Source: a virus
Lineage: Duplodnaviria > Heunggongvirae > Uroviricota > Caudoviricetes
Virus record (IMG/VR): IMGVR_UViG_2695420613_000009
DNA: 18,889 bases
Direction: 5' to 3' (one strand)
This document shows, one piece after another, positions 6,001 to 9,000 of the stretch (positions within the stretch are counted from its first letter, which is position 1; the number at the start of each line of letters is the position of its first letter). The position numbers were made by a program.

Positions 6001-9000
6001 TTACGAAGGTTCCGGCTCTGGCGACTGGCGCACGAGTGGCGTTACTGCTGGCATTGGCCTGAAATTCTGACCTGTATCCGGTAACCGTTTACTACCCGCT
6101 GTGATGGCGGGTTTTTTATTGCCCGTACAGGGCAAAAACCGTAAATTATGCGTGGGTGCCTTTCGGCTGATGGCTGGAGGGTGAACCTGAAGGCCTGATG
6201 TGGAAAGGCCCCGAGTCAACTTAACGTTAACCCGAGGCCCTAACACTTCGTACCTTAAGCAAGTAGAAGGTTAGCGCCTCTCTGTAAAAGGAGTCAAGCG
6301 CTATGTCGCAAAAATCGCTTATCACCGTCACAATTTGCATGACGGTTATCTTCACCATCTGGATGTTGCACGGTTCACTGTGTGAGTTCCGGCTGAATTT
6401 GTGGGGAGCGGAGTTTGCGGCGTTCTTACAGTGTAAGCAGTAGGAAAACCGCGACGGGGACGAGAGTCCCCGTCAACTGGTTGCTGAGGTTCAGCCGATA
6501 TGGCACCCGTTTCAGGTGAGAGAATGAACGATAAAATTCTCTGGTATATGCAGCGTGTTGTGAGAAATTCCCGCAACCCTGAATTTATGAATGAAGTTAA
6601 AGACGCCTGCCTTAAAAAGCAGGCGTTTTGTTTTGAGGCACCTGATGGCTTTTTGGTGCTGCGTTCTGTGCTCAGTGCTGATGGTATCCCTTATGTTCTG
6701 GTGTTGCTGGGCGTGTGTACGGGGAGTAACAGCGTTGAGCGTTACCTGCCGGAGGTGAAGACATTAACCCATCTGGCTGGCGGACGCTGGGCTGAGTTCC
6801 ATACGGCAAGGCGGGGATTTATCCGGCTGGGAAAACGACTGGGCTTTGAGCGAATGCCGGATGATGAGGATGGCTTCATGGTGTTCAGGATAGCGGTCTG
6901 ACTGCTACAGTTTTCATCATTGTGTTTAAACCAACATTGTAATTCACATTCTGACCCTGCTCCGGCAGGGTTTTTTGTTATCCAGGGGGCCATTATGGGT
7001 GGAAGTAAAGGCGGTGGTGATACCAAAGTAAAACCAACAGCAGCGCAAATAGCACAGGAAGAAGTGGCCTGGAAAGGGTGGCAGGATTACAAAAATATCC
7101 TCCGCCCGGCTGAAGATAACTTCATGGAAAAGGTCGATGACCTGAACAGTGAGCAGCAGTACGACAATATTGCTGGCACCACAAATCTGGGGTATCAGAA
7201 ACAGTTTGGCGAAGCACGGAAGGAGCTTGCGGGTAATCTTGCTCAGTCCGGCGTTGACCCATCCAGTGGTCGTTTTAATGCGGTAATGAATGCGAACCAG
7301 AGTGACCAGGTAACCGGGCAGATTGACACAACCACACGGGGGCAGGTATCGCAGGCAGATAAGTATGTTGCCGGGCTACAGGATGTTGCTGCTCTCGGTT
7401 CTGGTCAGAAGGCGGATGCGTTACAGAGTTTTAACTCTCTGGCAGACAGCAGTCTGGCAAAAGCTAAATCGGATGCACAGGCGGCGTTTACGAAACAGCA
7501 GGGGCGAGCCTCTCTTGTTGGCGCTGGTCTGGGTGCGGCAGGTGCATATGCGATGCATAAGGCTGGCGGTAGCGGAGGAAGTGGCGGTGCTAAAACACCT
7601 GGCACCGGCGCTAATGCCATTCAGCATCAGGCTCAGAACTGGAGACTGTAATTATGGAGTATGGCAAATACGAAACTCTCGCAAGGGCTGGTTATTCAGG
7701 AGCAGACCGCCCACAGGGTGACTGGCAGACGTCAGCAGCGCTGACACGCCAACAATACGACGACTGGCGAACCAGATATTTGCCCCGCGTGGCAAGGCTG
7801 GCTGACCTTGGGGAGAACAACAGTCTGATGAATGCACAGCTTGCACGGGTGGGAGGCCTTGCCACTTCCAGTCTCCGTACAGCGCAGATGGCGCAGGATA
7901 ACCAGATGGCGAGATACGGGGTAAACCGCCCGGATAATCCCGACAGTAATACGCTGGGGTTACGTAATGCCCTGGCAATTGCTGGCGCGAAAAATGGTAT
8001 CCGTGAAGCCGAACAGGATCGCCAGATGAATATTCTGACGGGGGCTTCTGCACCGGCAAGACAGAAACTGAGTGTTGGCGGCCAACTGGTGGCAGCGTAA
8101 GGGGGCAATATGGGATACGGTTTACTGGATATTGCAAATCAGTCGCGGCGTGAGGCATTACAGGGAATAAGTGACGCAGACAGACGACGTGAAGAAATTG
8201 AGGCTGCGAACAAACAGATGGCGGCGCAACAGAAAGCGCAGAACAAGCAGAATATCGGTACGGGCATTGGTACGGGGGCGGCTATTGGCGCATCCGTTGG
8301 TGGTCCTGTTGGTGCTGTTGCTGGAGCAGTAATTGGCGGCATTGCTGGTTCTTTGTTTTAAGGAGTGGTGAATGAGCGGATTTGCACAGGGGTTACTTGC
8401 CGGATTCAGCACCGTTGACCAGGCAATGACCCGTCGTAAGGAGCTTGGTCTGCGTGAAGCACAGCTTGCCCGGCAACAGAAAAATAACGAGCGCGATTTT
8501 GAGTTTGCGCAGTCTCAGTTTGAACATAATAAAAACGTTGATCAGCGGAACTTTGATTACAGAGCCAAAGTTGACGACCGTAATTATGCACTGAAGGAGA
8601 GGGAGTTTAACGCTAACCAGAATTACCGGAATGCGTCACTGGGTATGGAGCAGCAGCGACTCCAGTTGCAGAAATACAACCAGCGACGGCTTGAGTATAA
8701 CGATATGATTGCCCATAGCCAGCCACTAATGGAAGCGCTTGGAAAAGCAATTGAGGCTGGCGATCAGGAGGCTGCAACGCGTCTGTTCGGGCAGCTGCCA
8801 AAGGGACATCCATTAATTCTTATGTCAAACGAAGGCTATGCAGCGAAAGCGGGTCAGGCCGTGATCAACCTGCAAAAAATCTTTGGTGATAAGCCGGACA
8901 TGGCGATCGATTCGCTGAATACCCCGGAAAATCTCGATGTGCTTTCCGGCGTGTTTGCCCCGGAACTACAACAGCGTATTGGCATGCCTGATTCAACCGG

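Follow-up and report, generated by a model that had tools for sequence, protein, structure and literature searches.

A second hok module next to lom in 933W/Sp5-type Shiga-toxin phages lacks a mok frame and carries a predicted Sok-gated RNA switch

On the basis of the hok/mok/sok locus of plasmid R1, translation of mok has been held to be obligatory for the synthesis of the toxin Hok. A related type I toxin-antitoxin (TA) locus, hokW-sokW, has been characterised in the Shiga-toxin (Stx) phage Sp5/933W, and its product HokW, which shares 44% identity with R1 Hok, comprises 51 aa (Takada et al., 2021, PMC8621323). When Sp5 is treated with mitomycin C, sokW vanishes and HokW appears in a RecA-dependent manner, and deletion of hokW-sokW halves the phage yield; a second hok is not mentioned in that paper (PMC8621323). 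Here, we describe a hok locus adjacent to lom in a stretch of 18,889 nucleotides (IMG/VR virus record IMGVR_UViG_2695420613_000009), which is called the window throughout and whose first letter is position 1. The window derives from a Shiga-toxin phage of the 933W / VT2-Sakai (Sp5) type, and positions 6080-6560 are 100% identical to positions 45437-45917 of AF125520 and to dozens of Stx phages. The hok coding sequence (CDS) occupies 6303-6443 on the + strand and encodes a 46-aa protein of the Hok/Gef family (HokA-like, cluster 72). We hold with high confidence that this locus is a genuine hok/sok-family module.

The peptide encoded by 6303-6443 (MSQKSLITVTICMTVIFTIWMLHGSLCEFRLNLWGAEFAAFLQCKQ) was matched over residues 8-44 by the Pfam model HOK_GEF (PF01848) with 33.2 bits (E 4e-08; gathering cutoff 22 bits) and by the PHROG family phrog_251 with an E value of 2.8e-24. 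HokA was the top NCBIfam model, but the score of 38.4 bits remained below the cutoff of the HokA equivalog (NF007290, 89 bits), so that the protein is HokA-like and not HokA. A preliminary description of this DNA, which had been made from the sequence alone, had proposed a hok-family type I toxin gene adjoining lom, and the Pfam score above cutoff, the best NCBIfam model and the RefSeq annotation all agree with this proposal. The same description had called the gene unannotated, which is incorrect, since RefSeq WP_000078907.1 ('Hok/Gef family protein') coincides exactly with 6303-6443. The 1999 record of 933W (AF125520) has no CDS at this place; RefSeq/PGAP and several GenBank phage records annotate one, and in phage records the product goes by the names 'small toxic polypeptide', 'host toxic membrane protein' and 'MokW-like host killing'. 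An identical peptide is entry 72_1589 of a high-abundance cluster in a recent Hok survey (Escalera-Maurer et al., bioRxiv 10.1101/2025.08.07.668861; 2026 preprint). There it was cloned (LRP157) behind a constant synthetic Shine-Dalgarno (SD) sequence and an arabinose promoter, and it does not belong to the 3 of 45 homologs that were found to be non-toxic, and is reported with the homologs toxic on induction; mok, Sok and the mRNA elements were deliberately left unanalysed (bioRxiv 10.1101/2025.08.07.668861). Main-text literature searches for WP_000078907.1 and for the peptide string returned nothing, and a paper on ciprofloxacin and enterohaemorrhagic E. coli names hokE only. The gene itself is already known: it has been annotated, catalogued and reported as toxic. 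What is new here is the RNA anatomy, and mok-less hok loci may already figure in Steif and Meyer 2012, Pedersen and Gerdes 1999, Fozo 2010 or the T1TAdb paper.

The published hokW was placed by tblastn at positions 58463-58615 of 933W, on the strand opposite to the lom-adjacent hok. Expressed in window coordinates, it would fall at about 19106-19258 (- strand), just past the end of the window and about 13 kb from 6303-6443. This locus is annotated in the RefSeq record, where it comprises hokW, mokW and a 71-nt sokW. The idea that 6303-6443 is the published hokW was ruled out, given the 51 aa of HokW, the distance of ~13 kb and the other strand. The two toxins share 36% protein identity, there is no DNA similarity between them, and their Sok RNAs are not cross-complementary. 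The lom-adjacent locus is a second, unrelated hok module of the 933W/Sp5-type phage. Because the phage has two hok modules, the published hokW-sokW deletion strain retained the lom-adjacent hok. The twofold effect of that deletion on phage release was obtained with a second Hok present, and this bears on how the phenotype is read.

Within 6154-6302, no frame initiated by ATG, GTG, TTG, CTG or ATH reaches the hok SD or the hok start, and the same frame test detected mokW when it was applied to hokW as positive control. The failure of the preliminary description to find an overlapping mok-like frame was borne out when CTG and ATH starts were allowed as well, and it extends to the subfamily. Ahead of the hok SD, all three frames of the + strand are closed in the window by TAA 6256-6258, TAG 6264-6266 and TAG 6272-6274. 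The last of these stops is invariant in the family and forms part of both the 5' arm of the hairpin that buries the SD and the predicted sok -10 element. In hokW, the mok ATG lies 8 nt past GAGGC, and the same spacing is found in R1, whereas the lom-adjacent family carries CCCUAAC, CCCUAGC or CCCUGAC at this position (CCCUAAC in the window). An upstream frame overlapping hok was present in 5 of 24 distinct relatives, where it uses four different starts, and no mok frame was conserved across these 24 relatives. The leader alignment contains 16 distinct gap runs, which are mostly 1-2 nt long. Translational control probably differs from that of R1, as had been suggested from the window, since a mok frame is absent here and across the subfamily. 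As a separate observation, two relatives (L004 from an ST131-type P2-like prophage and L014 from E. albertii) carry an ATG in GAUGUGG after GAAGG with an R1-like frame offset, and their close relatives L009, L012 and L013 have lost the overlapping frame via indels of 1-2 nt.

The conserved hok mRNA unit runs from the 5' end of the tac element to fbi (6154-6508, + strand). The RNA 6154-6512 folds with -155.4 kcal/mol (z = -6.6), and in this fold the 5' end is clamped to the 3' end. Covariation was analysed for 20 distinct loci that were aligned from the 5' end to fbi, and the RNAalifold consensus comprised 76 pairs in 14 helices. It can be seen that 98.1% of the cells were paired in this consensus compared with 94.4% in shuffled alignments (none of 500 reached the observed value) and with 37-43% when the pairing partners were slid. 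Covarying pairs, altered on both sides, numbered 17 as opposed to 11.2 in the shuffles, and again none of the 500 shuffles reached 17. The tac element (GGGUGCC extended by CGGCUGA; 6154-6170, + strand) pairs with 6491-6508 in the full-length minimum free energy (MFE) structure, and in the open form it is predicted to pair with ucb. Its partner fbi (UCAGCCG...GGCACCC; 6491-6508, + strand) is complementary to the 5' end. The core of the tac:fbi helix (6154-6160 with 6502-6508) consists of seven invariant bp, so that the core itself shows no covariation. The extended 5'-3' duplex was present in 20/20 relatives with -22.8 to -34.2 kcal/mol despite differing flanks, and homology with the non-Stx relatives ends exactly at the end of fbi.

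Between these two ends, the elements that make up the switch were located on the + strand. The ucb element (GAAAGGCCCC, 6203-6213) changes its partner, which is the GAGGCC box when the RNA is closed and tac when it is open, and pair 54:90 of the ucb helix covaries (GC in 14 loci, AU in 6). The Sok-target hairpin (6234-6280) is formed by GAGGC 6234-6238 and GCCUC 6276-6280, the latter being the dcb equivalent. This hairpin is the MFE structure of the 5' fragment and forms in all 20 relatives with -14 to -22 kcal/mol. Its loop (CUUAAGCAA, 6254-6262) had an unpaired probability of 0.14 when the RNA was full-length, as compared with 0.6-0.7 after truncation. The SD-sequestering hairpin (6273-6302) pairs AGCGC 6273-6277 with GCGCU 6298-6302 and CUCU 6280-6283 with GGAG 6290-6293; it corresponds to helix 8 of the consensus (99% paired) and buries the hok SD AAGGAG at 6288-6293. 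Across the family, the unpaired probability of the core SD in the full-length form was 0.00-0.02, and the hok AUG is held by a long-range conserved helix. The stem-loop just after the stop, which had been noticed before, was also recovered. The post-stop hairpin extends over 6447-6482 (helices 13 and 14) with its core at 6453-6474 enclosed by AACCG:UGGUU, and its stem comprises nine perfect bp (6453-6461 with 6466-6474), five of which show double-sided covariation in the relatives. By analogy with the last stem-loop of the truncated R1 hok mRNA, it likely represents the protective 3' end of the processed mRNA (PMC9841398). Read on the - strand (6452-6475), the same hairpin precedes CGGTTTTCC and was called terminator-like; there it could stop antisense transcription arriving from downstream.

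The Rfam hok/sok covariance models, which the preliminary description had suggested as a check, gave a divided answer. In a permissive scan, the sok model RF01794, which runs along the hok leader, matched 6154-6316 over its full length with 35.6 bits (E 3e-06), but this score lies below the gathering score. The 14 relatives scanned reached 37.5-59.7 bits, likewise over the full length, and hokW reached 113.5 bits. Judged by this sequence and structure match, the leader is homologous to the Rfam sok family and stands at the edge of the curated family.

On the antisense strand, a Sok-like RNA of ~58 nt is predicted, which would start near 6260 and end at ~6203 (6203-6262, - strand, both ends being predicted). 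Its layout comprises the 5' tail GCUUAAGGUACGAAGUGUUAG, a perfect 16-bp hairpin and then UUUCC near 6203, and the predicted fold has -36.8 kcal/mol (z = -5.7). The core of this hairpin is the palindrome TTAACGTTAA at 6221-6230, which had been reported with its flanking CCGAG repeats (6211-6215 and 6232-6236) and was found as described; on the antisense strand the palindrome extends to the perfect 16-bp stem. The first bases of the 5' tail, which is single-stranded, are complementary to the target loop 6254-6262. The predicted sok promoter (6268-6297, - strand) consists of the -35 element TTGACT (6297-6292), an 18-nt spacer and the -10 element TAACCT (6273-6268). Throughout the family, the -35 element of the antisense strand reads TTGACT, TTGCTC or TTTACT, the spacer measures 17-18 nt, and a conserved ACTTGCT lies downstream; the -10 element is TAACCT, with TATCCT in L017, L023 and L024. 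The Sok promoter of R1 (TTGCGC-17-TATCCT) is found at the same relative place. When the stability of the hairpin was compared for both strands, it was more stable in antisense than in sense in 20/20 loci (mean difference -8.7 kcal/mol) as compared with 6/20 loci for a control helix. This is the expected signature, because wherever a functional antisense RNA has a G·U pair, the sense strand has a C·A mismatch. The earlier statement that Sok could not be identified is thus superseded, since a candidate was placed via homology with R1 and hokW and via family conservation. From these sequence features, an antisense antidote RNA (Sok) is likely to be encoded at the locus.

These elements suggest the following switch. 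The full-length mRNA would be shut by the tac:fbi clamp, with ucb covering the GAGGC box and the hok SD inside its own hairpin. Trimming of the 3' end to the post-stop hairpin would remove fbi, and tac:ucb pairing together with GAGGC:GCCUC pairing could then give rise to the target hairpin. This hairpin would capture the 5' arm of the SD hairpin and partly expose the hok SD, with no need for mok translation. Because C6280 is common to the target hairpin and the anti-SD, formation of the former undermines the SD hairpin. A Sok-like RNA pairing across 6203-6260 would free GCCUC-CUCU and re-bury the SD, and this pairing would probably also trigger cleavage by RNase III. In silico, formation of the open conformer (tac:ucb plus GAGGC:GCCUC) cost +13.9 kcal/mol in the full-length window RNA and +0.5 kcal/mol in the truncated one (6154 to ~6484), and the corresponding medians of 19 loci were +11.9 and 0.0 kcal/mol. 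Over the same 19 loci, the median unpaired probability of the core SD was 0.00 in the full-length RNA, 0.18 in the truncated open conformer and 0.00 in the truncated RNA with the Sok footprint blocked, and the shift had the same direction in 19/19 loci. In terms of this folding model, the accessibility shifts support a direct 'anti-anti-SD' gate that would not need mok. The idea that the hok ribosome-binding site (RBS) might by its nature be more accessible than the RBS of hokW was rejected, as its SD core is buried at least as deeply; for this reason, RBS accessibility was not used as evidence for mok-independence.

We consider it reasonably probable that the locus is a complete hok/sok-type type I TA module, the second in this phage, with direct RNA and Sok gating of hok. 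For the narrower claim that Hok translation is truly mok-independent and directly gated by the RNA switch and Sok, we are evenly balanced. Several points weigh against this reading. The predicted opening of the SD is modest (0.08-0.33), the AUG remains in the conserved long-range helix in every state, and thermodynamic prediction failed to separate the lom-adjacent hok cleanly from the mok-dependent hokW. The window does not reach the RF01794 gathering score of 59, and a scan of the whole window at the gathering threshold gave no match. An intrinsic terminator after fbi is absent in 5/5 Stx-phage variants, but this is no argument against function, because hokW likewise lacks one. L004 and L014 do have an ATG-initiated frame of 61-79 codons that overlaps hok, and the L004 type appears to be common among E. 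coli genomes. Literature searches gave no transcript, end-mapping or translation evidence for the 6303-6443 locus, and the toxicity assay of 72_1589 employed a synthetic SD instead of the native leader (bioRxiv 10.1101/2025.08.07.668861). Finally, toxicity is lost in R1 when mok carries stops ahead of the hok SD (Le Rhun et al., PMC9841398), and this copy would be silent if the subfamily shared the mok dependence of R1.

This last point leads to the explanation that the locus is silenced or decaying. A mok-dependent ancestor would have lost its mok start, Hok would remain untranslated, and an inert remnant or an RNA-level element would be left. Mutations of the R1 mok start and premature mok stops before the hok SD abolish toxicity (PMC9841398), which fits this scenario. 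So does the lack of a mok frame in the window, and the overlapping frame of 61-79 codons in L004/L014 could be the ancestral state. Pedersen and Gerdes are said to have reported in 1999 that K-12 carries many inactivated hok loci on its chromosome. The coding sequence tells a different story. The hok open reading frame (ORF) is intact with 46-47 codons in 24/24 distinct loci, its alignment contains only two gaps, each of 3 nt and thus in-frame, and the median pairwise ratio of nonsynonymous to synonymous substitutions (dN/dS) was 0.29 over 139 pairs, a ratio that is complicated by RNA-structure constraints within the ORF. Between the window and L005, a 92%-identical Stx-phage variant that is also mok-less, hok differs by 7 synonymous and 0 nonsynonymous changes. 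By these sequence comparisons the Hok ORF is under purifying selection, which argues against a dead locus. In addition, promoter, tac, fbi, SD and sok promoter have all been kept in mok-less lineages, and the overlapping frames, where they occur, begin at four different starts. We regard silencing as improbable. A comparably low probability is assigned to cryptic coupling, in which a short upstream ORF (uORF) would replace mok. The candidate opens with GTG 6200 (after GAAGG) and runs over 24 codons to TAG 6272-6274; by terminating there, 14 nt short of the SD, a ribosome would open the AGCGC/CUCU arm, so that initiation or re-initiation at hok could take place. This ORF terminates within the 5' arm of the SD hairpin, most of it would be covered by Sok (6203-6260), and many relatives have some upstream ORF ending between -46 and -16. 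However, stops in all frames at -47 to -30 mean that any upstream ORF ends there trivially, and no start codon is conserved. The uORF starts are scattered over -146, -145, -138, -132, -131, -130, -105, -103 and other positions in differing frames, and no AUGUGG motif at all is present in the Salmonella group. Moreover, R1 lost its toxicity through the premature mok stops that were recovered ahead of the hok start (PMC9841398).

Another alternative concerns the role of the module rather than its gating. As in hokW-sokW, late transcription of the + strand at the time of induction might silence the convergent sok promoter, so that Hok would aid lysis and phage release and would not serve maintenance or abortive infection. 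The hokW-sokW locus of Sp5 behaves in this way (PMC8621323). The lom-adjacent hok is co-oriented with lom and with the downstream structural genes, there is no terminator between fbi and the next gene, and the fact that deletion of hokW-sokW has only a partial effect would fit a second hok with a redundant function. On the other hand, the same cassette terminates P2-like prophages and is also found beside ykgM, and in these places late read-through is not obvious. This role appears to us a serious but rather doubtful possibility, and a complete module with direct RNA and Sok gating remains the reading that we prefer.

Of 5,426 complete E. coli genomes, 1,750 contained relatives of the cassette, which also turned up in 198 phage records. 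In the class with 77-83% identity, the homology covers 6134-6508 of the window, from the -10 region to the last base of GGCACCC. At the protein level, the relatives form 56 clusters, nearly all of 46 aa, with E. coli, Shigella and Salmonella as hosts, to which E. albertii and Citrobacter are added. In Stx phages the cassette follows lom, in P2-like prophages it stands at the end behind ogr, a lambdoid prophage has it behind gpJ, and it also occurs beside ykgM; these varied contexts fit a mobile moron. This Hok subfamily is a widespread 46-aa HokA-like moron cassette which lambdoid and P2-like prophages carry in E. coli, Shigella, Salmonella and their relatives.

Some of the relatives deserve separate mention. 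An alignment-based search for related loci yielded 7 loci, 3 of which lie in assemblies labelled as non-enteric and are probably contaminants. L010 (an 857-nt contig of Xanthomonas pisi), L011 (a Planococcaceae metagenome-assembled genome) and L013 (Vagococcus sp.) carry identical or near-identical enterobacterial hok cassettes, that of L011 including a masked run of N. Contamination is the most likely explanation for the presence of these cassettes in assemblies of unrelated organisms. In Salmonella enterica (L021, L022), two 46-aa hok genes stand in tandem ~500 nt apart and represent a duplicated cassette. The Rfam small RNA STnc540 (172-186 bits) lies directly 3' of the cassettes in Salmonella P2-like prophages, where it occupies 809-995 in L016, 795-992 in L017 and 808-989 in L023, each on the - strand. 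In L006 (Stx2 phage 86) and L031 (TL-2011c), the leader and the predicted sok are near-identical to those of the window in the comparison over 6154-6443. Their Hok ORF is strongly diverged (MPQKTIIVSILC...; synonymous divergence dS of 1.17 relative to the window) and resembles the ykgM-adjacent copy L007. This sequence pattern suggests that recombination swaps the toxin ORF within the module.

Upstream of the module, the lom CDS ends at 6070 and is followed by the lom terminator (ACCCGCTGTGATGGCGGGT, then TTTTTT; 6094-6118, + strand), a terminator-like site immediately 5' of the hok promoter. For the predicted hok promoter (6119-6147, + strand), the -35 element TTGCCC (6119-6124), a 17-nt spacer and the -10 element TAAATT (6142-6147) were present as the preliminary description had given them and scored 8/12; indeed, all sequence features listed there were recovered at their positions. 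In the relatives, a TAnnnT hexamer is located 6 nt before the invariant GGGTGCC, and most of them have a TTGC-type -35 element. A generic sigma-70 scan called no promoter on either strand. Both predicted promoters, hok and sok, rest on family conservation, because the generic scanner scores them at no more than 8/12. At the 3' side, the non-Stx relatives carry a canonical terminator (CCCGCAG...CTGCGGG plus a T-run) ~25 nt after fbi, whereas in the Stx-phage variants GGCACCC continues into GTTTC-GGTGAGAGA-ATG of the next gene. The next terminator-like hairpin is a strong one at ~6600-6634 inside the phrog_610 coding sequence. On the + strand it reads GACGCCUGCC...GCAGGCGU and then UUUGUUUUG, and it is terminator-like on the - strand too. 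In Stx phages, the hok transcript could actually end at this hairpin; alternatively, the hairpin could act as an attenuator. The downstream phage gene L0129 (phrog_610, hypothetical protein) belongs to the context of the module and lies outside it; with its start corrected, it covers 6524-6901 on the + strand. The phrog_610 profile (positions 1-124) aligns from residue 9 of the ORF 6500-6901, and judging from this alignment the gene probably starts at ATG 6524 (SD AGGUGA) rather than at the annotated ATG 6500. Since the profile begins at residue 9, the first eight annotated codons of L0129 correspond to the fbi segment of the hok mRNA.

With a mok-less subfamily that is conserved, selected and widespread, nature offers a way to test whether hok can be gated by the RNA switch alone. 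Hok surveys have skipped mok, Sok and the mRNA elements, and the anatomy with its coordinates should ease experiments in the native context. The parts that are most worth following up are a regulatory architecture that is mok-less and yet otherwise complete and conserved, and the second hok module in a studied phage. A broader proposal, which we advance only tentatively, is that a large mobile Hok subfamily (cluster 72, with relatives in about one-third of the complete E. coli genomes as well as in Salmonella, Shigella, E. albertii and Citrobacter) has given up mok altogether. It would have kept the R1 mok SD box solely as an anti-anti-SD; the hok RBS would be switched on by refolding after 3'-processing and off by Sok, and in Stx phages loss of the terminator would tie the 3' end and the activation to transcription or processing of the adjacent gene.

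Among the described systems, HokA of E. coli K-12 is the nearest named Hok, with 45% identity to the 6303-6443 peptide, and it falls into a separate cluster at 60% identity (cluster 93 as opposed to cluster 72 for the lom-adjacent Hok; bioRxiv 10.1101/2025.08.07.668861). The hokW-mokW-sokW module shares the phage and the TA family with the lom-adjacent locus, both are filed under the PHROG label 'MokW-like host killing', and both run directly into another gene with no canonical terminator after fbi. They differ in that hokW has GAGGC, 8 nt and then the ATG of the 70-codon mokW, whereas the lom-adjacent hok has no mok. On the Rfam sok model, the hokW leader scores 113.5 bits and the lom-adjacent leader 35.6 bits, and hokW-sokW has been studied experimentally whereas the lom-adjacent module is known here from its sequence. 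Compared with hok/mok/sok of R1, the lom-adjacent locus lacks the mok frame and has CCCUAAC at the position of the mok ATG and stops in all frames. Its Hok has 46 aa instead of 52 and is 34% identical, its leader stays below the Rfam gathering score, and no terminator follows its fbi. The two systems share the Hok/Gef toxin fold family, the tac-fbi clamp, the masking of the GAGG box by ucb, the GAGGC:GCCUC (dcb) target hairpin, the buried hok SD, the protective hairpin after the stop, and the relative placement of a promoter and a hairpin on the antisense strand, both of which are predicted in the lom-adjacent locus.

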